This document shows positions 7,204-30,212 of a stretch of 64,000 nucleotides of DNA, in pieces. The notes under the pieces are model-generated. The model saw nothing but the letters and a program-made list of their open reading frames with translations. It was not told the origin of the DNA and ran no database searches. Source of the DNA: Candidatus Zhuqueibacterota bacterium. Its GTDB lineage: Bacteria; Zhuqueibacterota; Zhuqueibacteria; Residuimicrobiales; Krinioviventaceae. The translations under genes and the position numbers were made by a program. Each line of letters starts with the position of its first letter. Within the stretch, counting starts at the first letter, position 1. Location of the stretch: NCBI GenBank assembly GCA_034521575.1, contig JAXHMJ010000001.1:263282-327281 (forward strand), in the 5' to 3' direction.

Positions 7204-7635
7204 TTACGCCGGTTTTCCGAAACGGTTTGTCAGCGACACGATATCTTCCATGATCATGTAAAGACACGGGACAATGATCAGAATAATGGCCGTTGAAAAA
7301 ATGATCCCGAATCCCAGAGAGATCGCCATGGGGATTAAATAATACGCCTGCCGGGAGGTTTCCAGTATGATCGGTGTGAGTCCGCCAAACGTGGTCAACG
7401 TCGTCAGAATGATCGGTCTGAAACGCCGCAGACCGGCCCGGTGAATGGCTTTAAATGCTGTTGTGTCTTTTCGCTGCCGGTTGGCATAATCGATCATAAT
7501 CAGGGAATCATTGACTACTACGCCGGACAAGGCAATGACCCCCATCAGGCTGATCAGGGAGAGATCGTATCCGAGCAGAATATGTCCGATCACCGCGCCG
7601 ACGATTCCGAACGGAATGCCCACCATCACGATCAA
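7204..7635 (-). pseudogene. RND efflux permease, C-terminal fragment only
   Basis: [18 protein letters not shown] and [18 protein letters not shown] are the last AcrB-type transmembrane helices. About 140 aa remain of a typical ~1000 aa protein. Confidence 0.8.
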
Positions 7636-7985
7636 AGGCTTTTTACATAATCTTTAGCCGGTTCAAATCCGCCTGCCAGCGCCCGGTACAGATCAATCCG
7701 GTATTCGATTAGATCCATTTGCGCTGACAGCCGATCGCGGCGCAGTCGCTGTTCATCGGTCAATGCGGTCAACACATCAATGTAATTGCCGACCCCCTTA
7801 AAGTACTCGATGCGCAATTGTCTGTAGGTCTCAACCGTCAGGGCGATCTGTGTTTCGATGCTTTTTAGCCGCTCGCTTTGTTTACGCTCCCGGATCAGGG
7901 CGGTTTCCACCTCCTGAAACGCCCGCAGGTAACTCTAGAGTCTGGCCGGGCGGACGTCCGAGCAGCAGATTGAATCGATGCTTTA
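7632..7985 (-). pseudogene. TolC/NodT outer membrane efflux protein, C-terminal fragment
   Basis: [22 protein letters not shown]...[11 protein letters not shown]; the upstream FNLLLGRPPGQ piece is in a discontinuous frame; N-terminus missing. Confidence 0.7.
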
Positions 7986-8193
7986 AAACACGCAAAAACA
8001 CAGCGCCTTTGGCTTTAGGGTTATGAGGCACAATTGAACTCGCCGGCAATTCGTACGTATATCCGGATCGATTTTATATATAATGAATGAACGCTCCCGA
8101 AAATTCACACTGCCAAGGGGCTTTGAACTTTCTTTTCCCTTAAAACTTAATTGCTTGCATCTTTCGCAAAAAATCAATAAAATCGGTATATGA

Positions 8194-8552
8194 TAAAACG
8201 CGGGGTAGCGTGTGGGGTTGTGCAGAGGCAGGAATCAACTATATCGGGTGCGGGATGTACGGCAACTTTTGCGGTGTATAATGGTGGAAATTTTTGGCCG
8301 CCTGATACCATTTCATCAATTTCCACACCTTTACCTGAACAAGGCACAGATTTGCGATATATCCGGTCATTCGGGTAAAATGGTTTAAAAATGATGGAGA
8401 TTTTACCTTTTGTTTTTAAGCAGTTGACAACACTCGGTACCCAATAGATGAATTCTCTGAATAAATTTACTTTTGCTATATTTGAAATATAAACAATTGT
8501 CCTTATATTTCCAATACAGCGGTATAAAAACAATAGAATATATACAGACGTT
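8194..8552 (+). pseudogene. array head copy 1: decayed tyrosine recombinase 3' end plus attI-like site
   Basis: [30 protein letters not shown] aligns by eye to [31 protein letters not shown]. Ends TATATACAGAC-GTT directly at the first cassette. No left attC arm is present. Confidence 0.6.
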
Positions 8553-8582
8553 ATGCCCAATTTAACGAACTTATACGATAAT

Positions 8583-9419
8583 ATGAAACAGATTGAAACA
8601 TTACATTTATTCCCAAAACTGACAGAAGAACTCTTGAAATTATTGCAAGGATTAGAGATTTCTGATTGGTTAAAGCCTTCTCCAATAAATGGAAGAACCG
8701 TTAAGGATTTGGTTTCACATATAATCGACGGTTCATTGAGAAATTTATCTATTCAACGAGACAATTTTGTGGATGATTCAAATGTTCCAAATATTAATTC
8801 GTATAAGGATTTAGTTGAGCACATTCAAAAATTAAATAAAGACTGGATGATTGTTTCGCGGAGATTAAGCCCTACAATACTTATTGATTTGTTGGAATAT
8901 TCAGACAAACAATTTTATGACTTTTTGAAAAGTAAAAATCCAAATGACAAAGCAATATTTGCAGTCGCTTGGGCTGGAGAAACTGAATCGGAAAATTGGT
9001 TTGACATAGCAAGAGAATATACCGAAAAATGGCATCATCAAATGCAAATTCGATTGGCTCTAGATAAACCAATTCTATTAGATACTGAATATTCTGAGCC
9101 ATTATACGACACTTTTATGTTTGCCTTGCCTTATTTATATCGTGATTTTACCAATTATGACAATGGAACAAAAATTAAAACCAGTTTGACCGGTAAATTG
9201 AGAAAAGATTGGGTGATTGAAAGACAAACAGATAAATGGGATTTTATTGATTTGGGAAGTTCAGATATTCATACTTCAGTAGAAATACCCGATGATATTG
9301 CGTGGATTATATTCACAAATACGGATAGGGACAAAGAGAAATATAAAACTAAGATTAAGATAATTGGAGACAATTCAATAGGATTAAAACTATTAGATTT
9401 AGTAACAGTAATGAGTTGA
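8583..9419 (+). CDS. cassette 1: MDMPI_N/DinB-superfamily (maleylpyruvate isomerase N-terminal-like) protein
   Basis: W--PS------RTVKDLVSHIID and REYTEKWHHQMQIRLA motifs. Confidence 0.7.
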   Translation: MKQIETLHLFPKLTEELLKLLQGLEISDWLKPSPINGRTVKDLVSHIIDGSLRNLSIQRDNFVDDSNVPNINSYKDLVEHIQKLNKDWMIVSRRLSPTILIDLLEYSDKQFYDFLKSKNPNDKAIFAVAWAGETESENWFDIAREYTEKWHHQMQIRLALDKPILLDTEYSEPLYDTFMFALPYLYRDFTNYDNGTKIKTSLTGKLRKDWVIERQTDKWDFIDLGSSDIHTSVEIPDDIAWIIFTNTDRDKEKYKTKIKIIGDNSIGLKLLDLVTVMS

Positions 9420-9432
9420 AAATAAAAACTGG

Positions 9433-9563
9433 GCATAACATCGTATATAAAACATTTGGCAGTCAGTGGGTTATCGAGCGTTTCAGCTCGTATCAAAAGC
9501 ACTTGTAACTTGACAGGAAAGTGCTTCGAATCGCCAAACGTTTCATATACGTAACCGTTAGTA
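9433..9563 (+). repeat. attC site 1
   Basis: R'' GCATAAC, L arms CGTATATAAAAC / TTTCATATACG, R' GTTAGTA. TGGGCATAAC is the reverse complement of the cassette start GTTATGCCCA (8550). Confidence 0.85.
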
Positions 9564-9599
9564 GCCATTTTAAAGAAATACCCCACAAATGAATAAACT

Positions 9600-11105
9600 G
9601 TGAAAATACTGATTGATACAAATATTCTGATTCAATTAGAGGATAACAGAGTTATCGAAAGGGAATTCTCTAAATTTTATAATCTCGCAATCTCAAATGA
9701 TTGTAAGATTTTATATCACCCCGACGCAATTCCTAAAGATATTGAGCGAGACAAAAACACAGAACGAAAAAATGTAATATTATCAAAGCTTGAAAAATAT
9801 CAAAGACTTGAAAATTTTGCAAAACCAACAGAAGAGTTTCTTGAAAGCATCAAAGACGAAAAAATTAATGATAAAATTGATAATAGACAACTATTTCAAT
9901 TATATAAAGGATATGTTGATTTTTTTGTAACTCAGGATAATGGTATTCACTCCAAATCAATGAAATTTGGATTTGAAGATAAGGTGCTGACAGTCAGAGA
10001 TGCACTTGGGATATTAGAAAAACAATTTATAATTGAAATACCACAACACCCAATTTTACGGGAACATAGTATTCGATTCATTGAAAAGCATTTTGATAAA
10101 GAGTTTTTTGACAGCTTGCGTAATGATTATGAAGCTGATAAATTTCAAAACTGGTTAAATAAATGCGTAAAAGAAGATAGAAAATGTTATTCTCTGATAG
10201 TTGAAGATAAATTGCAAGCTCTTTTAATTTATAATTCTGAGAAAGTAGAAGACCATAAGATAGAGGGAATATTCAATAAAGTTCTCAAAATATGTACATT
10301 AAAAGTTTCTAATGATGCTTTCGGCATTAAGTTGGGAGAACTATTCTTAAATAAAATGTTTACATATTGCATCAATCATAAAATAGCGCATTTATACTTA
10401 ACCGTTTATGAAAAACAAGAACAGTTAATATCGTTACTTGAAAAATTTGGGTTTCAAAAACAAGTTTTTACAAATTCACAAGGACTTGGTGAAATCAGAA
10501 TGATAAAGAGTTTAGACAAAAACAAAATTGAAAGTAATGAGAATTTAATGGTAATTCATCCATTTTATCATGACGGAAAAACCATAAATAAATTCGTAAT
10601 ACCAATACGTCCAGAATATTACGGTAGTTTGTTTAAGGATGGGAAATTAAGACCTCCAACTTTATTTGATTCTGCACCTGATAGCGTAAATGAAATTCAA
10701 GGAAATACAATTGTAAAAGCTTATATTTCAAATACCCGAGTTAAGAATTTTAAACAAGGTGATTTACTTTTCTTTTATTCATCCAAGACTAATAAAGCAA
10801 TAGAGCCAATTGGGATTTTGGAATCAGCGACAAAGGTGGATAACTTTGAAGATTTATGGAATATTGTCAAGAAAAAGACAGTATTTTCGCAACAGCAATT
10901 GAATGAAATGTTACAAGAAAAGGGATGGCTACATGTAATTATCTTTAGGCTAATTACATATATGGATAAGAAAATTCGATTGCAGAAAATTAATGAAATT
11001 GACAGCTTCAAAAATAAATTGCAGACTGTCACTAAAATAAATGAAGAAGATTATTTAAGTTTGAAAAATGAAGGATATTTTGACAAGCGTTATATTATCA
11101 ATTAA
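9600..11105 (+). CDS. cassette 2 gene A: PIN nuclease - GNAT - PUA/ASCH-like fusion protein
   Basis: N-terminal ILIDTNILI...IDNRQL...FVTQDNGI (PIN); central LKICTLKVS--AFGIKLGELFL (GNAT); C-terminal FVIPIRPEY...KAYISN...KQGDLLFFYSS (PUA/EVE/ASCH-like). Confidence 0.75.
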   Translation: MKILIDTNILIQLEDNRVIEREFSKFYNLAISNDCKILYHPDAIPKDIERDKNTERKNVILSKLEKYQRLENFAKPTEEFLESIKDEKINDKIDNRQLFQLYKGYVDFFVTQDNGIHSKSMKFGFEDKVLTVRDALGILEKQFIIEIPQHPILREHSIRFIEKHFDKEFFDSLRNDYEADKFQNWLNKCVKEDRKCYSLIVEDKLQALLIYNSEKVEDHKIEGIFNKVLKICTLKVSNDAFGIKLGELFLNKMFTYCINHKIAHLYLTVYEKQEQLISLLEKFGFQKQVFTNSQGLGEIRMIKSLDKNKIESNENLMVIHPFYHDGKTINKFVIPIRPEYYGSLFKDGKLRPPTLFDSAPDSVNEIQGNTIVKAYISNTRVKNFKQGDLLFFYSSKTNKAIEPIGILESATKVDNFEDLWNIVKKKTVFSQQQLNEMLQEKGWLHVIIFRLITYMDKKIRLQKINEIDSFKNKLQTVTKINEEDYLSLKNEGYFDKRYIIN

Positions 11106-11484
11106 ACCGATTTATGCTAAAGCTATTATGTCAGGCATAAAAAAGGTAGAGTTTAGAAAGAAAATATTTAAAAAACCTGTAGACAAGGTGTTTGTATATT
11201 CTTCTTCTCCTGAAAAGAAGATTATTGGATATTTTAGAATAGGAGAAATTGTTGAAGATTCTCCAGAAAGACTTTGGGAAAAATTCAGTAAAGTTGGTGG
11301 AATTAGTAAAAAGGACTTTTTTGAATACTATAAAAATGTAGAAACAGGATTTTCGATAGGCATTGATACATATGAGGAATTTGAAGAAGGTGTTGACCCT
11401 GCAGATTTTTTTGAAAAATTCTGTGCTCCTCAATCATATATATACTTAGAAGAAAAAACGGCTACTAACATTTTGTATAAGTAA
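11068..11484 (+). CDS. cassette 2 gene B: ASCH domain protein
   Basis: VILSIKPIYAKAIMSGIKKVEFRK...VFVYSSSPEKKIIGYF is the ASCH signature; overlaps the end of gene A. Confidence 0.85.
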   Translation: MKDILTSVILSIKPIYAKAIMSGIKKVEFRKKIFKKPVDKVFVYSSSPEKKIIGYFRIGEIVEDSPERLWEKFSKVGGISKKDFFEYYKNVETGFSIGIDTYEEFEEGVDPADFFEKFCAPQSYIYLEEKTATNILYK

Positions 11485-11594
11485 TAGCAGGTGATGTAGT
11501 AAATATCAAGGTTTGTAGCCCGCTCAAACTGCGTAGCGGTTTGACGGGAAAGTGCCACGCAATCTGCCACTACTCATACAATATACCGTTGTGC
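11463..11594 (+). repeat. attC site 2
   Basis: GGCTACTAAC is the reverse complement of GTTAGTAGCC (9557); R' GTTGTGC at 11588. Confidence 0.85.
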
Positions 11595-11633
11595 GTCATG
11601 CTGGGAGACCGCAAACAGTAACTTTTTCAAATT

Positions 11634-12449
11634 ATGATAATTGAAAAAACAACAATTGATAGAATCAAAAAATATCGGACAGATTATTTGAATTCATTAC
11701 CTGAATTTCAGGAATTATTCATAGAGATAATGATAAATAATTCTGATTATTATCTTCTTCAGGTTAATAATGAAGAGATTGGTTATGCAATTAAAAATAA
11801 TGATGGTATTCTGATAGAGTTTTATTTGATTGACAAATTTATCACAGAGAGCAAAGAATTCTTTGGTCAGGTTTTAAAGGATTTATCAATTACAGATATA
11901 TATTGCAAGTCATTTGATTCTCTATTGCTAAGCAATTGTTTATTATGTTCTTTTTACTATTCAGTTCTTGGAGCAATGTATCGTGATTATATTGAGCCGA
12001 CAATTAAAAAGGATTTGGAAATAAAAATGGAAAAAGTAAACCTTTCATCAGTCGGATTATTGCTAATACAAGACGATTCAATAAAGGAACTTTTTGAGAC
12101 AGAACAGCAATTAACTGATTTTATAAAAAATGAGAGTGTTTTTACATTTAATAAAAATGATGAGTTAATTGGATGTGGAATGGTAATTCGGACACATTTG
12201 GATTGGAATTTCTGTGATTTGGGTGTTTGGGTTAATCCTTTAAAAAGAGGAAAATACTTTGGTTCTCAGATTTTATTAAACCTGAGAGAGTTTGCAATAA
12301 ATAACAATATGAAACCGAGTTGTGGATGTGCAATAGAAAATTTGGCATCACAGAAAACTATTGAAAAAAGCGGATTTGTAAGTAGATATAAACTGATAAA
12401 GTTTCAAACAAAAAAAAGCACGAACGCACAACACGCAATAAAAAAATAG
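11634..12449 (+). CDS. cassette 3: GNAT-family acetyltransferase
   Basis: C-terminal DLGVWVNPLKRGKYFGSQIL...CAIENLASQKTIEKSGF. Confidence 0.75.
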   Translation: MIIEKTTIDRIKKYRTDYLNSLPEFQELFIEIMINNSDYYLLQVNNEEIGYAIKNNDGILIEFYLIDKFITESKEFFGQVLKDLSITDIYCKSFDSLLLSNCLLCSFYYSVLGAMYRDYIEPTIKKDLEIKMEKVNLSSVGLLLIQDDSIKELFETEQQLTDFIKNESVFTFNKNDELIGCGMVIRTHLDWNFCDLGVWVNPLKRGKYFGSQILLNLREFAINNNMKPSCGCAIENLASQKTIEKSGFVSRYKLIKFQTKKSTNAQHAIKK

Positions 12450-12556
12450 GGCGTAAAGTACTAAATTTGAACGATATAACAATTAATAAACGGCTTGGTA
12501 ACTTGACAGGTAGGGGCTTTGAAATGCCCTGCGTTTCTTATTGCCAACCGTTATGC
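12426..12556 (+). repeat. attC site 3
   Basis: ACGCACAAC is the reverse complement of GTTGTGCGT (11588); R' GTTATGC at 12550. Confidence 0.8.
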
Positions 12557-12627
12557 CCAATATTAACAGGACACTACAAAGGAACAATTCAAAATGATTA
12601 AAATAATTTTTAAACAAAACTAAATAA

Positions 12628-13467
12628 ATGAATACTGTAATATATTATTTCTCAGGGACAGGTAATTCATATGTTGTTGCAAGGGATATTGCAAAAGAAC
12701 TAAATGGAGTCAAGATACCTATTGCTAATGTAATTGAAGAGGATATCGTTATTCCTGAGTTCGATATAATTGGAATTGTTTTTCCCGTTTATAATGCAGT
12801 TGTTCAAGGGATGCCTGTGATGGTTAAAAAGTTTGCAGAGAAACTAGAAAAAATTAATTCAAAATATATTTTTGTTATTTGTACCTGTTTAGGTTGGTCC
12901 CATACGACTATAACTAATTTTGATAAAATATTAATAGAAAAAGGCGGAAAATTATCTGCCGGTTTTACCGTAATCATGCCAGATAATTCTAGTCCAGTTT
13001 CTACGAGAAAACAAGAAAAGATTTTTAATAATTGGGCAAAGAAAAGAAAAGCTATATCTCAATATGTTAAGAGCAAAAAAAAAGGGAGATATGAAAATCC
13101 AGCTTTTTTGAACTTAATTATGACCCCATTCTTATCAAATGGTAAGAAAAAAACATTATCTCTTTATCGTAATTTAGCCAACGACAATTATTTGTCTTAT
13201 GAAGAAGCGGTAAAATATTCCGACAAAAGTTTTAAAGTAAATAGTAATTGTAATGGATGTGGAATTTGTGCAAATATATGTCCTGCAAATGATATCCAGA
13301 TAATTGAGGGTAGACCAGTTTGGCAAAACCTTTGCGAATCTTGCTTGGCTTGTATCAATTGGTGCCCACAAGAGGCAATAACAGGAGGAATTGTTTCAGT
13401 TGATAAATCCCCAACAGGATATCATCATCCTGACATTAAAATATCGAATATGATATTGAGAAATTGA
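12628..13467 (+). CDS. cassette 4: EFR1-family flavodoxin-fold/4Fe-4S ferredoxin
   Basis: IYYFSGTGNS, GIVFPVY, CNGCGICANICP and CESCLACINWCP. Confidence 0.85.
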   Translation: MNTVIYYFSGTGNSYVVARDIAKELNGVKIPIANVIEEDIVIPEFDIIGIVFPVYNAVVQGMPVMVKKFAEKLEKINSKYIFVICTCLGWSHTTITNFDKILIEKGGKLSAGFTVIMPDNSSPVSTRKQEKIFNNWAKKRKAISQYVKSKKKGRYENPAFLNLIMTPFLSNGKKKTLSLYRNLANDNYLSYEEAVKYSDKSFKVNSNCNGCGICANICPANDIQIIEGRPVWQNLCESCLACINWCPQEAITGGIVSVDKSPTGYHHPDIKISNMILRN

Positions 13468-13483
13468 AATAGATAAATACTGG

Positions 13484-13621
13484 GCATAACATAACAGCAA
13501 AATATAATTAATTGCGGTTTCAGTGCTGATAATCAACATTATCACCCGCACAAACCTCGGTGCATCTCGACAGGAAAGTGCCCCGCATTCCGCAACTAAT
13601 CATATTTGCGGAACGTTGTGC
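13484..13621 (+). repeat. attC site 4
   Basis: GGGCATAAC is the reverse complement of GTTATGCCC (12550); arms GCAAAATATAATTAATTGCGG / CCGCAACTAATCATATTTGC; R' GTTGTGC at 13615. Confidence 0.85.
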
Positions 13622-13668
13622 CGCATGCAAAAAAACACCCTGCTAAACGATAAACTAAATTGATAATT

Positions 13669-13992
13669 ATGGACTTTTCAAGTATTACAAACGGAATTTG
13701 ACAAGGAATAAAAACCTGGGAATCAAAACTGACGGAATTACCTAAAGATACGATTATGAATAAACGAAATAGTCAGAACCGGACAATAAAGCAGATACTT
13801 GGTCATATGGTTGATTCTGTTTCAAATAATACACATCGGATTATTCATTTACAATATCAAGCCAGTCCATTTAAATTTCCAAACTACGCTACCAATGGCA
13901 ATAATGACAGGTGGATTGCAATACAGAATTACCAAAACGAGAATTGGGAAAACCTGATTCAATATTGGAAATTATACAATGATAATTGGTGA
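13669..13992 (+). pseudogene. cassette 5: DinB-family gene with premature stop and 3' truncation
   Basis: MDFSSITNGI*QGIKTWESKL...TIKQILGHMVDSVSNNTHRIIHLQY; TGA at codon 11. Confidence 0.6.
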
Positions 13993-14161
13993 GATACTTG
14001 AAACTCATATCGATAACGATAAATTCATTGACGATAAAAAAGTTGACATTAAAATGCTTAACCCTTTGATTTATTGTTCAACTATAAGAGAATATTGGTC
14101 AATTGGAGAAAAACTTGGCGATGGATTTAAATGCGGTAAAGAATTAAAAACACATAATTAA
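13979..14161 (+). pseudogene. cassette 5: flavin reductase-like protein, C-terminal fragment
   Basis: IIGEILETHID...VDIKMLNPLIY...YWSIGEKLGDGFKCGK resembles the C-terminus of flavin reductase domain proteins. Confidence 0.55.
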
Positions 14162-14176
14162 AAAAAATGCACGACG

Positions 14177-14306
14177 GCACAACACATGGTATAGTGCATG
14201 CGGGTTTCAGAGGGTATTCCAGCGTTGTAGCCTGCTCAAGCCTTCGTATCGGTGGACAGGCAAGTAGCCCGCAATCCCTTACGGCACATACACTCAACCG
14301 TTGTGT
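14177..14306 (+). repeat. attC site 5
   Basis: CGGCACAAC is the reverse complement of GTTGTGCCG (13615); R' GTTGTGT at 14300. Confidence 0.8.
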
Positions 14307-14330
14307 GAAATAGCGTGCCGATAACTAATA

Positions 14331-16057
14331 CCTAAATTGATCGATTTATAAGGGCACCAAATAAAAACGGCGCAAAATGTTGCCGGTGCCGTCTTTTTCT
14401 ATTTGTTTTCATCTGAAATAACTTCTTATTACGCAATCAACCTTGCTTTTTGAACTGATTTTGCATTAAAGTCAGAGAATTATCAGTGTAACGGCATACT
14501 TCTCCCATTGTTTAGCTCTTTAATACGATTAATTTTTATTATGTTTTACGTCACAAATGCGGGTTCATACTCCTCAATGAATGACCATAATTTTAAAATC
14601 TTCAGGGAATCATAGACTGTCTGTGTTACCCTTAGTATAATTTTTCCGCCTGTTGTCACAATTTTGGCTGCAAAATCAATCATGATCCGACGAAAGGTAT
14701 TGGGGTAAGCGGTAACTGGTACTGCTTCACAGGGGATGTCCCTTTTATATGCTTCAAAAAGAAAATGGCTGATGATCATCAAATAGTAAAAAACTCTATT
14801 CATACCGAAACGCTTAAATGGTAACTGTTCTCTTCCAGCAAATTCTTTCTGTGATCGGTGTACTAATTCAGCTCTACCTCGACTGTGGTTTAACTCGATA
14901 ATCTTTTCGGCCTTGAGATAATTGCCACTACCAGCATTGATTAGTTTTTCATCCAAGCTCACTGTTTCGGCCTATATTGGTATAGATTACTGAATCCGGT
15001 TGTGCAAAATCAAATAAGAGTTGACCATTTTCCTCAGCTTTCTAAGAGGTAAAAATACAACGGCGAAATGTCTTCCATGATTTGAGGCGATTAGCAAATT
15101 CGACAAAAGTCCATGTCTGTCTATAAGAACGAAAAGCATCATAACTAAGATTGTTAACATATTGTTTAATATCGTTATATATTTTCCCGGCACAAACATA
15201 ATGAATACCAAGGCGTTGTTCAAAGAACCGAAAGTTCTGGTCATCCATAAAACCACTGTCTGTTAGCAGAATGATTGGAACATCTTTATAGCGACGTCGA
15301 ATAGCTTTGACCAGACGCCCCACTGACTTTATAAAGTCGCTGCCATGATTACAATGAACATCTCCGGCTCGGAACAGCGCATCAACAACATAAGGCCCCC
15401 AACTAATTTGCATAGGCTGGAATCCTTTTTTATTTTTATAGGTCACATTTGAGCCTTCACGCTTTTTAGCGCCGTCATTGTCGAAAACTACGCTGTCACC
15501 AAAAAGAATAACTTCTTTGGGTTGTTCAATAATAAGTCGCCAAATAAACATCTCCAACAAAAGAGACCGAAATATCATTTGCCCAACAAAACTGAACTTG
15601 CGAAACATCCTTTTGATTTGATGGGATGTTGCCATTTGTTCCGGGCGATTTTCGAGCACGGCAGCATAGGCTTCATCGTTTTTTCGACGATCAAAAGAAC
15701 AGATTGACATATCCGTACCATCAATAAACCAAGCAAAAAGCTGTTTGACAAACTGACGGTATCCCAGTCCTTTAGAAGAGCCTTTTAAAAAGCTAAAAAC
15801 GTTTTCAAATAGAGAATAGAATCGAATTTGGTCAATATATCTAAGAAAAAACAACAGACCACCACGACCGCTAATTTTATCTTTTGTGATCTCAATTTTT
15901 GATATTTTAGGTTGCGTTGTATCGGTTTTTTTCTGCATATTATGGCTACCTTTTGGGTTTTGTTGTTATTCTTTTTATTGGTTACACAACTAAAATAATA
16001 ACAAACTATTATAAACCCAAAAGGTTTTTTATTTTTTTAAAAACCGCTCAATTTAGG
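14331..16057 (-). mobile_element. IS1380-family insertion sequence, 1727 bp
   Basis: Terminal IRs CCTAAATTGATCGATTT / reverse complement CCTAAATTGAGCGGTTT; 5-bp direct repeat TAATA on both flanks (14326-14330, 16058-16062). Confidence 0.85.
14546..15938 (-). pseudogene. IS1380-type DDE transposase, interrupted
   Basis: KISGRGGL, DSVVFDND, YKNKKGFQP, FRAGDVH, TDSGF, RGRAELVH and KRFGMN motifs; in-frame TAG at 15042 and a +1 shift near 14955. Confidence 0.8.
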
Positions 16058-16205
16058 TAATAGAAAACCGTGCATCCGTGAACGGTTAAAGTCAAAGGAA
16101 TAGAAATGAAGATAAGAAAAACTTGCTACTGTTGGTGGAGAGGCGACTGATTAATCATTTTTAATCAATCTTTACTTTATCACTACAAATATTAGGAAAA
16201 CAACA

Positions 16206-16610
16206 ATGAACAAGATAGACGAAATACTGAAATCAATGACATTTGATTTTTTTGGTAGCGGAAAACATAAAATTACTCCATCAATGCATCTTTCTTCAAA
16301 AAATTCTTTATTTCTGGATGTAAGATCTAAAGAAGAATTAGAGACAATTGCATTTAGCCTTGTGCATCATATGCCGGTTTTACATATTCCCATTAATGAA
16401 ATACCGGATCGCTTATCAGAAATACCTCGCGACAAAACTGTTGGTATTTTTTGTTCTTCCGGTGTTCGTTCAACAATGATTTATTTTTATTTGCGAACAT
16501 TCGGCTTTGAAAATGTAAGAATATTTGAAGGGGGTTACGCTGAACTAGTAGATGATTTTAAACCCGGTAAATTGCTGAAACATATTACACAAGGTAAGAG
16601 CAAAGAATGA
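16206..16610 (+). CDS. cassette 6 gene A: rhodanese-like sulfurtransferase
   Basis: LDVRSKEE, LHIPINEIPDRL, IFCSSGVRS active-site loop, FEGGY. Confidence 0.85.
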   Translation: MNKIDEILKSMTFDFFGSGKHKITPSMHLSSKNSLFLDVRSKEELETIAFSLVHHMPVLHIPINEIPDRLSEIPRDKTVGIFCSSGVRSTMIYFYLRTFGFENVRIFEGGYAELVDDFKPGKLLKHITQGKSKE

Positions 16611-17398
16611 CAAAGATAATAATAATTAGTTTGTCGGTTTTTGCCATTGGCCTTATTATGACCATGTCTGGAAGAGGCGGAGGCAATTTCTACGTCCCAC
16701 TGCTTGTTATTGCAGGACTGGGAATGCATCAAGCCGCTACTATGGGTCAATTTATTCTTATGATTGCAGCATTAACGGGGATGCTTGTCTTTAACAAGAA
16801 AAAAATGGTCGATTGGAAACTTGCTTTGGTTATTGATCCGCCGACTGATATAATGGCATTTGTCGGAGGCTACTTTTCCAGCTATATAAGCGGGGTAACT
16901 CTTAAAATAGTTTTGTCAGCATTCCTGGTTTTGGCAGGCTTTTCTATGCTTGTTAAAATTAAAGAAAGACCTATTCAAACGGATAAACGGTTTGGTTATT
17001 GGCATAGAAACTTCAATGGTGAAAAGTATGTTGTAAATCTTTGGTATACAATACCTATTACAGCATTCGCCGGTTTGGTGGCTGGGGCTGTCGGAATATC
17101 ATGCGGTTCATTCAAGATTCCTCTAATGGTTTTATTGTGTGGGGTCCCTATGCATATCGCAGTCGGGACATCATCAGCCATGATTGCTGCTACTGCAATC
17201 ATGGGGTTTATAGGTCATACTATGCGTGGACACTTTGAGCCGGAATATGCTATTCCTTTGGCTATTGCTGCTATATTGGCTGGTATTCTCGGTGGCAAAT
17301 TGGCAATTAAAACAAACCCAAAGTATTTAAAGCTGATTTTTGCTGTAACAACATTTATCGCAGCAGTCGTCATGTCAATTAATGCCCTGGCAATATAA
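16607..17398 (+). CDS. cassette 6 gene B: sulfite exporter TauE/SafE (TSUP) family
   Basis: GRGGGNFYVPLL and GISCGSFKIPLMV...AVGTSSAM; overlaps gene A by ATGA. Confidence 0.85.
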   Translation: MTKIIIISLSVFAIGLIMTMSGRGGGNFYVPLLVIAGLGMHQAATMGQFILMIAALTGMLVFNKKKMVDWKLALVIDPPTDIMAFVGGYFSSYISGVTLKIVLSAFLVLAGFSMLVKIKERPIQTDKRFGYWHRNFNGEKYVVNLWYTIPITAFAGLVAGAVGISCGSFKIPLMVLLCGVPMHIAVGTSSAMIAATAIMGFIGHTMRGHFEPEYAIPLAIAAILAGILGGKLAIKTNPKYLKLIFAVTTFIAAVVMSINALAI

Positions 17399-17470
17399 AG
17401 AGATTTTTTACCAGTGTGAATACGTCCTGTCTTCACACTGGGTATTTCGTTGGAAGAGGCACGCCACTTC

Positions 17471-17568
17471 ACATAACAGCGGCTATGCGGTTCGGGCGGA
17501 GTACCGCCCTCTCCCAAATTGTCCTGCGCTGCGCTTCGGGCAACTTTGCATAGCAGTAAACGTTGTGC
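17471..17568 (+). repeat. attC site 6 (shorter, different sequence family)
   Basis: TTCACATAAC matches the reverse complement of GTTGTGTGAA at 9/10; arms GCTATGC / GCATAGC; R' GTTGTGC at 17562. Confidence 0.8.
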
Positions 17569-17667
17569 CATGTTTGGAATAACTCAAGACCAAAAATGAA
17601 TTGGAAACAATATGAGTGCGCCAAGCGAAGCTAATATAAGCAAGCCGGACAATCCGGAACGTGCAAA

Positions 17668-17758
17668 GGCTAACCACCAGCACGGAACCATGCGTATGAG
17701 GCGGCAACAAATCATACGAAGCCATGTTGAAGGCAGTTTGTCAGCCATAACGTTAGCC
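17668..17758 (+). repeat. tentative attC site 7
   Basis: GGCTAAC...GTTAGCC with an inner CGTATGA/TCATACG stem; outer L arms pair poorly. Confidence 0.35.
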
Positions 17759-17759
17759 T

Positions 17760-18642
17760 GTGCGTGCCAGCACCCAGACAGGCAAGTTCACCCTGTTAGA
17801 TTTATATTTGATAAGGTGAATCCTGTTGGAATACTGTTATCTAACAGGGTGAAGGTATCGAGTCCCGAAATATTCCATATTGCTTTGGGTTAAAGGTTTC
17901 ATTTCCTGGAAGCCAATATCAAGACAAACGTTAGAGGTGAGTTTGAGTTTGACGAGCCGGGCAAGCGAATGAACGGTTTTTGTGATTTGATCCGTTACGC
18001 GGATGATTTTGTGTGCGTGGTACGGTATGCAAAAGAAGCGCACCGTATAGAACGGGGCTTACAAAACCGATTCACCCAGTATGGACTGGAGATTCATTTG
18101 ACGAAGAGCCGGAACATAAGTTTTGGACGGTTTGAACGGGAGAACGCCAGGAGCCAGAAACGCCGCGCCAATACATTTGATTTTCTGGGATTTACTCACT
18201 ACTGTGACTGGTCGAGGCGAGGCTATTTTAAGGTAGGCCGCAAAACCAGTCGCAAGAAATATACAGCCAAATGCAAGGAGATGAATGCGTGGCTTAAATC
18301 TATCAGGAATTAGATAGCAACGAAAGACTGGTGGAAGATACTGAGAGCCAAATTACGAGGACATTTTCAGTATTATGGAGTGAGTGAGAACTACAGAGGG
18401 ATAGCCAGGTTTTACAGATTTACCCTGAATATGGTGAAGAAATGGTTAAACCGACATAGTCAGAAACGGAAAATGAACTGGAAGAGATTCAAAGAATATC
18501 TTGATCATTATCCGTAGCCCGAACCGAAAATCATGCACAGCTTTTATGGGTCACGTGTAAGGTGAGATAAACTGAGGAGCCGGATGTGGAAAATTCACAA
18601 GTCCGGTTCTGTGAGGGGCATTGAAGTTCCTCACAATAAAGT
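17760..18642 (+). mobile_element. group II intron remnant (internal deletion, truncated in domain VI)
   Basis: GTGCG at 17760; domain I-like stem TTCACCCTGTTAGAT/ATCTAACAGGGTGAA; RT remnant; domain V GAGCCGGATGTGGAAAATTCACAAGTCCGGTTC at 18577-18609; no branch-point 3' end. Confidence 0.75.
17969..18565 (+). pseudogene. group II intron reverse transcriptase/maturase, C-terminal third
   Basis: LIRYADDFV, TFDFLGFTHYC, KLRGHFQYYG, WLNRHSQKR; in-frame TAG stops at 18311 and 18515; RT N-terminus absent. Confidence 0.85.
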
Positions 18643-18998
18643 TAAAACGCGGGGTAGCGTGTGGGATTGTACAGAAGCAGGAATCAACTATATCGGGTGC
18701 GGGAGGTACGATAACTTTTGCGGTATATAATGGTGGAAATTTTTGGCCGCCTGATTCCATTTCATCATTTTCCATACCTTTACCTGAACAAGGCACAGAT
18801 CTGCGATATATCCGGTCATTCGGATGAAATGGTTTAAAAATGATGGAGATTTTACCTTTTTTTTAAGCAGTTGATAACACTCGGTACCCAAAAGATGAAT
18901 TCTCTGAATAAATTTACTTTTGCTAATTGGAAATATAAACAATTTTCCTTATATTTCCAATACAGCGGTATAAAAACAACAGAATATATACAGACGTT
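18643..18998 (+). pseudogene. array head copy 2: decayed tyrosine recombinase 3' end plus attI-like site
   Basis: About 21 differences from 8194-8552 by hand alignment; same EQGTDLRYI; ends TATATACAGAC-GTT at the next cassette. Confidence 0.6.
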
Positions 18999-19018
18999 GG
19001 CAATAATTTAAAGAGAAC

Positions 19019-20233
19019 ATGAAGGTAAAAGGATACATAAAAAAAGATTATACTGAAATAGCCGACTCGTTTAGAAAAAACTTTGAAATATTTGGAGAGT
19101 TAGGTGCATCACTTTGCATATATCACAACAATGAAAAGGTGATAGATATTTGGGGTGGATATAAAGATCTGAAAAAAGGCAACGAATGGGATGAAAATAC
19201 TGTTGTACCTATATTTTCAACCACAAAAGCTATAGCCTCAACTTGTTTAGCTATTTGCCACAGCAGAGGATTATTTGACTATAACAGTAAAGTCTGTGAA
19301 CATTGGCCTGAGTTTGGGATGGAAAACAAGAAAGAAATAACTGTTGAGCAATTACTTCAACACAGAGCTGGACTTTCGGCCATAGATGAAAAATTAAATT
19401 CCGAGAAAATAAAAAACCGGAAGTTTTTAGACAAAGTAATAGCTAAACAAAAGCCATTTTGGTACCCTGGACATTATCAAGGATATCATGTTTGGAACAT
19501 AGGATGGTATATTAGCTCATTACTTTCAAGAATTGAACCCCGGAAAAGATTTCTTAAAGAATTTATTGAACAGGAAATACTTCCAAATATTGAAGGTGAA
19601 GTCCGAATTGGTGTTGAAAATAACTATAATTGGTCAAAAATTGCCACATTAAGACCTTTCTCAAAGCTAAAAGGACTATTTTCTATGCCTTTTAAGTTTG
19701 TTTTTGAATTCTTTAAGCCTTGGTCACTTTCTTTCAAATCAATGTTAAATCCTCCGTTTGTTAGTAATCATTCCAACTTTAATAAACCTGAGATACTTCA
19801 ACTTGAGATGGGGGCTGGTGGAGGCATTGGGAATGCAAGAGGATTAGCCTCTCTAATTGATTCATTAACGGATGGGAATCATTCTTTACACTTAAAAAAA
19901 GAGACACTGGAATATTTGATGAAATATCCTGAAGCCCCAATAAAAGGATGGGAAGATATTGTTTTTAAACAGGATGCATTTAGATTCCACGCTGGATTTA
20001 TGAAACCATCTAAAAAGCATGATTTTGCAAAAACTATAAAAGCTTTTGGTGGATTTGGTGCGGGAGGAAGTTTTGTATTTCATGATCCTGAGTATAAACT
20101 TACAGTTGCATATACAATGAATAAAATGTCTTCTAAAATGATGAACATGAATAGAGAATTAAATATCAGAAATTCGGTATATAAAACTATTGCCAACAAA
20201 GCATCAAACCCAATAGCCGCGGGTGTTTCATAG
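19019..20233 (+). CDS. cassette 8: serine hydrolase, beta-lactamase/family VIII esterase fold
   Basis: IFSTTK (SxxK), LLQHRAGL, GYH, FGGFGAGGSF; no signal peptide. Confidence 0.85.
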   Translation: MKVKGYIKKDYTEIADSFRKNFEIFGELGASLCIYHNNEKVIDIWGGYKDLKKGNEWDENTVVPIFSTTKAIASTCLAICHSRGLFDYNSKVCEHWPEFGMENKKEITVEQLLQHRAGLSAIDEKLNSEKIKNRKFLDKVIAKQKPFWYPGHYQGYHVWNIGWYISSLLSRIEPRKRFLKEFIEQEILPNIEGEVRIGVENNYNWSKIATLRPFSKLKGLFSMPFKFVFEFFKPWSLSFKSMLNPPFVSNHSNFNKPEILQLEMGAGGGIGNARGLASLIDSLTDGNHSLHLKKETLEYLMKYPEAPIKGWEDIVFKQDAFRFHAGFMKPSKKHDFAKTIKAFGGFGAGGSFVFHDPEYKLTVAYTMNKMSSKMMNMNRELNIRNSVYKTIANKASNPIAAGVS

Positions 20234-20318
20234 GATAGTGATGAAGTTAAATGAAAATTTCGTACTTTTATGAAACGACAGTGGAAGCGGCTACAGGGTT
20301 TATGCTCGAACGTTGGCT
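20191..20318 (+). repeat. attC site 8
   Basis: TATTGCCAAC is the reverse complement of GTTGGCAATA (18996); arms AGCATCAAACCC / GGGTTTATGCT with an extrahelical C; R' GTTGGCT. Confidence 0.85.
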
Positions 20319-29272: not shown

Positions 29273-30127
29273 ATGATTATGATTTCAAGTTGTAATAGTC
29301 TTAAAAAATTATATCTCTCAGAAATTGGTGAGACAATAAATGATACTCCTATTAAAAAAGGGGGAATCTATACTGAGAATGATTTCTTTACTTTACCTGC
29401 GCAAATTCAAAATTATTTCAAAAATTGTGGATACATAGGTAAAGAAAAAATAGAAAACATCAAGATAGATTACAGCAATTCATTTATTAAAATGTCTCCA
29501 GAAAAGAAATGGCTAAAGATAAAGTATTATCAAGTCAATTTTACTCATAATCCAACTCGATTAGCATATATTTCAAGTAAAATAATTGGGATATTCTCGT
29601 TTGAGGGGAGAGATAAATACCAAGCTGGTAAAGGCAATATGTTGATAAGACTGTTAAAATTGTTTACCGTTGCTGATGCAAAAGGGAAGGAAATGGATAA
29701 ATCAGCACTGGCAACACTATTGAGTGAAGTTTTATTTATGCCAAGCTTTGCGACAAGAGAACAAATAAAGTGGAAAAGCATTGATGAAAATTCAGTTGAA
29801 GCAAAATATAGGGATAATGATAATGTGGTTTCTGGAATTTTTTATTTCAACGGTAATCATGAGTTTATAAGATTTACGACTGACGATAGATTTTATTCAC
29901 TAAAAGATGGGAGTTATAAAAAAACAAAATGGTCAGTAGAATTAAGCAATTATAAAGATTTTAAAGGAATAAAATTTCCTGAAAATGTAAAAGCCATATG
30001 GCATATGGATGACAAAGATTACGAATACTTTAGAACACAAATAAAAGATGTTCAATATAATATAAATAAGCAAAGCACCAACGCACAACATCTTTATAAT
30101 AAATTCAAATTCACCCCTTACCCATAA
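29273..30127 (+). CDS. cassette 11 gene B: DUF6544-like hypothetical protein
   Basis: LPAQIQNYF--CGYIGK, GRDKYQAGKGNM-I-LL-LF-VADAKG-EMD motifs. Confidence 0.65.
   Translation: MIMISSCNSLKKLYLSEIGETINDTPIKKGGIYTENDFFTLPAQIQNYFKNCGYIGKEKIENIKIDYSNSFIKMSPEKKWLKIKYYQVNFTHNPTRLAYISSKIIGIFSFEGRDKYQAGKGNMLIRLLKLFTVADAKGKEMDKSALATLLSEVLFMPSFATREQIKWKSIDENSVEAKYRDNDNVVSGIFYFNGNHEFIRFTTDDRFYSLKDGSYKKTKWSVELSNYKDFKGIKFPENVKAIWHMDDKDYEYFRTQIKDVQYNINKQSTNAQHLYNKFKFTPYP
30083..30105 (+). repeat. half attC (left arm only) at array end
   Basis: AAAGCACCAACGCACAAC mirrors the attC3 left end (AAAGCACGAACGCACAAC); no right arm or GTT follows before GC-rich backbone resumes. Confidence 0.55.
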
Positions 30128-30212
30128 CAATTCTCCATTCCCCATCTCTGTTTTACCTTGCTTTTATGCGGCAAAATATTATTTTATGAGTGTTTTCAGG
30201 AAAGGATGAATC

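Follow-up and report, generated by a model that had tools for sequence, protein, structure and literature searches.

The window analysed here is a stretch of 64,000 nucleotides (nt) from a Candidatus Zhuqueibacterota bacterium (contig JAXHMJ010000001.1, positions 263,282 to 327,281), whose source is a salt pan metagenome. In the genome collection searched, its GlnRS and DUF362 proteins are without close relatives, and the best GlnRS match, of 72-73%, is to metagenome-assembled genomes of Sumerlaeota and Pirellulales. On its forward strand it contains an array of integron cassettes (8551-30130), located in a low-G+C island that extends from about 8,000 to 30,100, with values of 0.30-0.40 against 0.45-0.53 in the flanks. 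The cassettes are co-oriented and their genes are typical accessory genes; they were linked by exact or one-mismatch 10-mers between the 5' end of each cassette and the R'' arm of its own attC. The resulting R'/R'' chain places the crossover G at positions 8550, 9557, 11588, 12550, 13615, 14300, 17562, 18996, 20312, 21478 and 28908. With ten R'/R'' pairs, two of which were shown to fold, and with the 64 kb devoid of an integrase, the array belongs to the clusters of attC sites lacking an integron integrase (CALIN), which have at least two attC sites and no intI nearby (IntegronFinder, PMC4889954).

The element considered in this report is a module of about 360 bp that is found twice at this locus: copy 1 (8194-8552, forward strand, 359 nt) forms the head of the 22-kb array and copy 2 (18643-18998, forward strand, 356 nt) lies in its interior. 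Taken jointly, the observations moderately favour a reading in which both copies are array heads without coding function, with an attI-type site at the 3' end, a probable recombinase box II remnant upstream of the site and, behind copy 2, a cassette captured recently.

The two copies and their right edge

Alignment of the two copies reveals 18 substitutions, 12 of which are transitions, and 3 gap positions, corresponding to about 94% identity, as the first-pass annotation of this DNA had reported; no further long repeat is present in the 64-kb window. The differences are spread evenly over the three thirds of the module (6.9, 5.2 and 5.6 per 100 nt) and they fall on all codon positions, in a ratio of 6:5:3 in the frame named by that annotation; as it had claimed, coding constraint on the module is not apparent. 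An identical stretch of 25 residues, described earlier as recombinase-like, can be read in one frame of each copy. The G+C content decreases along the module from 0.50 to 0.40 and 0.28, indicating that the 5' part, whose first ~100 bp have a host-like G+C, is host-like rather than similar to the cassette pool; this gradient is consistent with the remnant of a resident gene, followed by an A+T-rich site. The module has no match in Rfam and its RNA fold shows nothing unusual.

At the right edge, both copies terminate with ...AGAATATATACAGACG|TT, and the G is in both cases the genuine crossover point of the cassettes. For copy 2 this is established by the cassette that follows, whose first position in four other contigs falls on this same G|TTGGCAATAATTT boundary; the cassette behind copy 1 carries TGGGCATAAC, the exact R'' complement of its own 5' end. 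The R'/R'' chain and the boundaries in other contigs are thus in agreement with the initial description of two copies ending exactly at a cassette GTT.

An attC site is an imperfect palindrome of the R''-L''...L'-R' type, in which R'' is complementary to the 5' end of its own cassette. The module does not have this organization: for the slot starting with GTTGTGCCAT no R'' partner was found among 10-mers within one mismatch, and the right-arm-like element, the only arm seen in the first inspection, is without an R''/L'' partner. Folding of the whole module as DNA, on both strands, gave z values of -0.1 and -0.5, no better than shuffled sequences, whereas two true attCs of the array, folded for comparison, gave -3.7 and -5.1. 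Over the last 93 nt, folding is limited to an internal palindrome of 13-17 bp, and the R' arm beside GTT remains unpaired. A complete long attC, envisaged in the first-pass annotation as an alternative, is ruled out for the module by the fold values and by the missing R'' partner.

The features of an attI are found instead at the crossover, where a core of the GTTRRRY type provides the G|TT and a cassette lies directly 3' of it, and in the site itself, which lacks an R''-L''/L'-R' hairpin, as expected of a site recombined as a duplex; a functional intI, the usual neighbour of an attI, is not present, and only a putative remnant of 40 codons occupies this place. The last ~70-85 bp of the module look like a double-strand, non-hairpin recombination site of the attI type, ending at G|TT and located at 8466-8552 in copy 1 and at 18912-18998 in copy 2, on the forward strand in both. 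The imperfect palindrome inside the site (8476-8519 in copy 1, without strand assignment, and 18922-18965 in copy 2) contains a sigma-70-like sequence, TTGAAA-16-TATATT on the forward strand of copy 1 (8482-8509) and TTGGAA-17-TATATT in copy 2; these are consensus matches only, and in both copies they point toward the cassettes.

The slot of copy 2 has a G|TT on either side, at 17562, which is the crossover G ahead of the start of an intron-bearing cassette, and at 18996; the 3' part of copy 2 shares 94% identity with the head copy, and this is the arrangement of cassettes of the attI or ΔattI type. At copy 1 the upstream G|TT is missing and the sequence reads AAAAC|TT.

Homologous units in another genome

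Sites of a similar kind are found in an unrelated 2.1-Mb metagenome contig from the ENA (L008), of whose array two further stretches, L044 and L046, were also examined. There, the cassette that matches the one behind copy 2 is not preceded by an attC, but by a repeat of ~400 nt that contains no open reading frame (ORF). A span of 21 kb contains 9-10 occurrences of the repeat, and the examined stretch as a whole (L008:2286-17994; L044; L046:8321-8598) contains at least 12. Its units end with ...GGTATAAATGCAATTGGGTTTATGGAGATG|TT (also written ...GGTTTATGGAGATG|TT) and for several of them the first position coincides with the G|TT of the attC before them; no attC fold was found at the unit ends, and the units have no match in Rfam. 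That array, which is likewise co-oriented and intI-less, opens with a partial unit of this type (L046:8321-8598), preceded by a type I restriction-modification operon and chromosomal genes.

When the crossover G is kept fixed, the last 70 nt of both module copies align with four of these units with z values of 4.8-6.2 (4.8-6.2 for copy 1 and 5.5 for copy 2), and 0 of 2,000 dinucleotide shuffles reached such scores; nine attC ends of the window gave values from -2.1 to +2.5 in the same anchored test. Among 2,200 GTT-anchored 70-mers taken from both strands of the window, the end of copy 1 ranks first and the end of copy 2 second, with scores of 19 and 18, followed by 10 for the next. The alignment is collinear for ~85 nt, with about half to 60% of the positions shared when judged by eye, and the near-invariant TATAAT of the units, ~70 nt before the crossover, aligns with the TATATT of copy 1. 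It was also considered whether the module is homologous over its full length to the ~400-nt unit; this was rejected, since an nhmmer profile found nothing, and the likeness is confined to the junction-anchored end of ~70 nt.

Directly behind copy 2 is a cassette coding for a protein with a beta-lactamase fold (18997-20312, forward strand), which has 99.0% nucleotide identity, over all its 1316 nt, to L008:9979-11294, where it follows the unit u9978. The same cassette is found with 93-95% identity in three other contigs, where it is located behind an ordinary attC. Since the two cassettes are 99% identical and the two sites only about half to 60%, the cassette was not inherited together with the site; it would have been inserted separately, and recently, at copy 2 and at the L008 site, which implies that both hosts had an active integrase in the recent past. 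Such a behaviour is the one expected of a landing site of the attI type.

The recombinase-like remnant and alternative origins of the module

Upstream of the site, a region of ~115 bp (8298-8414 in copy 1, forward strand; ~18747-18860 in copy 2) is the probable remnant of box II of a dead tyrosine recombinase, for which 38 residues are reported. Its sequence EQGTDLRYI matches exactly within the box II pattern HxLRH...GxDxRxIQxxLGH...Y, and of the 27 loci retrieved by a scan of viral contigs for GTDLRYIQ, 22 have the box II of a tyrosine recombinase. In a test anchored on the motif, comparison with the flanks of real box II sequences gave z values of 5.6-6.0 (0-1 of 3,000 shuffles), while four non-recombinase proteins with the same or a near-identical motif have much lower flank scores. 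The hhalign program assigned a probability of 93.5% over 32 columns (P 2e-7). Both the comparison set of the anchored test and the template set of hhalign were picked by the motif itself, and for this reason the remnant is graded as probable rather than as shown. The catalytic R, both H and the Y are replaced identically in copy 1 and copy 2, confirming what was first noted about these positions; only ~40 codons are present, and the part of the gene that bears the additional domain specific to IntI is missing.

The claim of an integrase tail made in the first-pass annotation is therefore backed by the anchored test and by hhalign, but it does not find support in general searches, and several negative results weigh against it and against the assignment of the module as a whole. 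No match at E<=10 was obtained for any frame of the module with Pfam, including the PF00589 profile, or with NCBIfam, including TIGR02249, its model for integron integrases. PDB sequences do not contain a match to the remnant, phmmer against 1.84 billion proteins returned two false matches to repeat proteins only, and tblastn against plasmids gave no recombinase-like match. When seven real integrases were compared to the window by tblastn, the best matches were on copy 1, with E values of 0.002-0.09; however, a rhomboid protease gene was also matched with E 0.003, and this false positive makes the local E values uninformative. A tyrosine recombinase gene was revealed in the window neither by Pfam (PF00589), for the ORFs that were compared with it, nor by tblastn with the seven integrases, so that the array is formally a CALIN. 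In the other genome, no integrase is present within about 48 kb of the array, including a walk of ~27 kb upstream, and no integrase remnant lies beside the homologous site. Relatives of the module were found neither by exact-pattern scans of genome and metagenome contigs nor by a peptide-pattern scan, and the nhmmer profile of the L008 unit or site misses the module when it is not anchored. Finally, the two copies share a left edge, and the sequences adjacent to it upstream are only weakly alike (p about 0.03).

In the explanation preferred here, circular cassettes would be inserted at the G|TT crossover at the end of the module, and the ~115 bp upstream of the site would probably be the dead C-terminal box II of a tyrosine-recombinase gene, which may once have read toward the site, as occurs in integrons with a co-oriented intI. 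Copy 2 would be a duplicate of the head that has reached a cassette position, where it constitutes a putative attI-type cassette without ORF. Both sites would have served for the landing of cassettes; the capture behind copy 2, which can be considered recent since the cassette is 99% identical to the one behind the homologous site of the other genome, would have required an integrase provided from elsewhere. Regarding the earlier proposal that a non-coding attI platform has been copied, the non-hairpin 3' site at a true crossover and the lack of coding constraint speak in its favor, while the derivation from an integrase gene is less well backed.

Neutral events could also be responsible for the repeat, namely a segmental duplication, a gene-conversion tract or an artefact of assembly, the G|TT edge being then the point at which the flanking cassettes diverge. 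Indeed, there are only two copies in the window and their evenly distributed differences look neutral. As for the assembly, the short-read contigs of the source sample hold both sequence types of the module, each with its own left flank; however, the junctions of copy 1 (8146-8187 and 8553-8658) are outside the coverage of these contigs and lack independent read support, and contigs from runs X1 and X2 join the copy-1-type module (8188-8552) to the cassette at 18997 onward. In the mosaic contigs the change of type occurs where 33-34 nt are shared, as is typical of de Bruijn graphs, and this join is either a path switch in such a graph or a real variant without the first sub-array. Moreover, a random duplication would not stop exactly at the crossover G, with a different cassette behind either copy, and the conservation of the junction-proximal part in a second genome, together with the 99%-identical cassette behind both sites, also argues against this explanation, which is considered rather improbable.

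A low probability is also assigned to the possibility that the module is an ordinary small cassette that has been duplicated, with a degenerate attC and a likeness to recombinases that arose by chance. Such a cassette would contain either no gene or an ORF of 62 codons, which covers the 5' half of the module (8190-8378, forward strand); its frame is uninterrupted in the two copies, with the stop at an identical codon position (TAA in copy 1, TGA in copy 2). The G|TT found at both ends of the copy 2 slot agrees with this possibility, as does the similarity of the last 15 nt of the module to the 3' ends of the attCs of the array; in addition, the family of the group II intron that precedes copy 2 lies directly behind a gene start, composed of a ribosome-binding site (RBS) and ATGA, in 6 of 6 loci, and the ...GGTATATGA|TAAAAC of copy 1 resembles an unoccupied site of this type. 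Conversely, phmmer found no homologue of the ORF among the 1.84 billion proteins, and its 8 nonsynonymous and 4 synonymous differences, by our own count, are indistinguishable from neutrality. The module is also without R''/L'' partner and hairpin, copy 1 lacks the upstream G|TT and shows AAAAC|TT in its place, and the 3' end is similar to the non-attC units of the other genome and different from attCs.

The left neighbour of copy 2 is a decayed group II intron (17616-18646, forward strand), an element characterized by a 5' GUGYG, domains I-IV, domain V and an ORF for a reverse transcriptase (RT)/maturase. The window intron matches RF02005 with 62.9 bits; domain V (18577-18609) scores 35.7-37.5 bits and an RVT_1 fragment is present, while the N-terminal half of the RT is lost and the frame contains one stop. 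Its relatives (L010-L014), with 59-80% RT identity, are found in five metagenome-assembled genomes of other phyla, and comparison with them sets the 5' end of the intron at 17616, right behind ...ATATGA. The 5' exon, which is the start of the cassette (17563-17615, forward strand, 53 nt), ends with an RBS-like sequence and ATGA, as do the 5' exons of the relatives. All the relatives have a conserved tail behind the hairpin that follows domain V, ending with ...GGAG..CATATTATGTCTACTCGACAA, and a contig from the same sample runs on into this tail (...AATAAAGTTAAA|TTTTGGAAAGGAACGATATTATGTCTACTC); the window intron is therefore truncated at 18646/7, where its break overlaps by 4 nt (TAAA) with the first four bases of the module. 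Thus, the statement that copy 2 cuts a group II intron is correct as far as the loss of the 3' tail is concerned, while domain V and the next hairpin are intact.

Other properties of the intron were also observed. A 96-nt insert in domain I (17753-17848), absent from the five relatives, includes an internal GTGCG and an inverted repeat of 13 bp without mismatches, CACCCTGTTAGAT...ATCTAACAGGGTG. In this family, which is found in five phyla, the 3' tail (~110 nt after domain V in L010-L014) contains GGAG and ATGTCTACTCGACAA, and in two of the relatives (L012 and L013) the ORF downstream (MSTRQ-...) can be read in frame from the ATG of the tail; the family appears to supply a replacement translation start to the gene that it interrupts.

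Upstream of copy 1, a segment on the forward strand (8099-8146) gives a local alignment to 18589-18648 and may represent, with weak support, what is left of the loop of domain V and of the hairpin behind it; its score was reached by 1 of 2000 shuffles with a 100-nt flank and by 28 of 2000 with a 150-nt flank. The 47 nt between this segment and copy 1 are bracketed by TAAAAC repeats and end with GGTATATGA; their comparison with the 53-nt 5' exon (p ~0.03) and with the intron tail (p ~0.05) is not significant, and no homology was found between the sequence upstream of copy 1 and that upstream of the intron. For the shared start base of the module, the best lead is a deletion or recombination linked to the intron. 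That the module is itself a 3' flank or exon mobilised along with the intron, both left edges being then given by intron 3' ends, is very improbable, since, in spite of the adjacency of copy 2 to the intron, of the weak remnant found 47 nt ahead of copy 1 and of the TAAAAC on either side of these 47 nt, the five related introns of other phyla have a different conserved tail and no module, the window intron has lost that tail, the remnant has roughly 77% identity with three indels (own count) against 94% for the module, and the right edge is the integron crossover.

The array, its flanks and known integron systems

The left flank of the array contains fragments of RND efflux genes on the reverse strand (7204-7910), corresponding to the C-termini of AcrB and of an OEP protein. 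The OEP C-terminal fragment comes first, directly followed by that of AcrB, which is an abnormal operon order and indicates that the left flank is itself rearranged. The broken tolC assigned to the neighbourhood of copy 1 is represented by these fragments, which are about 280 nt distant from it and not adjacent. Within the array, the cassette slot 14301-17562 holds a DDE_Tnp_1_4 transposase gene, divided into two ORFs (14546-15938, reverse strand), in addition to rhodanese and TauE genes. Unrelated cassettes at 8550 and 12550 have an identical 10-nt core site, GTTATGCCCA, with R'' TGGGCATAAC, and those at 13615 and 28908, also unrelated, share the 10-nt core site GTTGTGCCGC. At the border of the island (30080-30130) the attC of the last cassette is truncated: an R''-like AACGCACAAC is found there and the right arm is gone.

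Among known systems, integrons with intI co-oriented with the cassettes, and attI behind the 3' end of the gene, have been described in Treponema denticola (PMC3607928). The module resembles their attI in its location at the head of a co-oriented array, in the G|TT crossover, in the lack of a hairpin and in the recombinase-like frame that reads toward the site; it differs from it in that no intact intI is present, the putative remnant has ~40 codons with all catalytic positions lost, and a second copy lies within the array. In mobile integrons of classes 1 and 2, internal attI and ΔattI sites replace attC and are proficient in recombination (PMC12901181, citing Partridge 2009). The attI-ORF-attI and ΔattI cassettes of these systems are similar to the module, since an attI-derived site, bounded by crossovers, takes the place of an attC in the array; unlike them, the module belongs to a chromosomal, sedentary array without integrase, in an uncultured bacterium from a salt pan, is 356 bp long in its internal copy and carries no resistance gene. 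Furthermore, its sequence is unrelated to those of attI1 and attI2, and the sister system in the other genome comprises at least 12 copies.

As in other CALINs, at least 10 attC sites are present and no intI is nearby; differently from a CALIN, which by definition has no recognised attI, this array keeps a putative head unit of the attI type, and keeps it twice. Co-oriented non-IIC group II introns located just behind attC are known from hypersaline integrons (PMC7923331), and the window intron is similarly co-oriented, truncated and located in an array rich in toxin-antitoxin or accessory genes from the same habitat; it differs in being 53 nt past the attC, directly behind the ATGA of a gene start, and in belonging to a family whose 3' tail contains an RBS and ATG.

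Thus, internal attI and ΔattI sites were already known from mobile integrons of classes 1 and 2; what would be new is a sedentary array without integrase that has a head of the attI type and an internal copy of it, with a homologous site repeated at least 12-fold elsewhere and apparently recent capture at internal copies. Mobility of the module itself is suggested by the slot of copy 2 only, with its G|TT on both sides. A more general proposal, put forward tentatively, is that, in a lineage of chromosomal integrons from uncultured bacteria, attI may not be one fixed landmark beside intI but a mobile unit without ORF, multiplying in arrays devoid of an integrase, with two copies here and at least 12 in the second genome; these would offer additional landing sites, and possibly promoters, to cassettes inserted by an integrase encoded elsewhere.

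CALINs are usually considered decaying remnants and attI is considered to be present once per integron. The retention and copying of a head of the attI type, the sister copies in another genome and the shared cassette with 99% identity suggest that CALINs may still capture cassettes, and at several positions; they also provide a candidate site of ~70-85 bp in a lineage for which no attI has been defined. If this is true, models of cassette order, expression and turnover in sedentary integrons would change.

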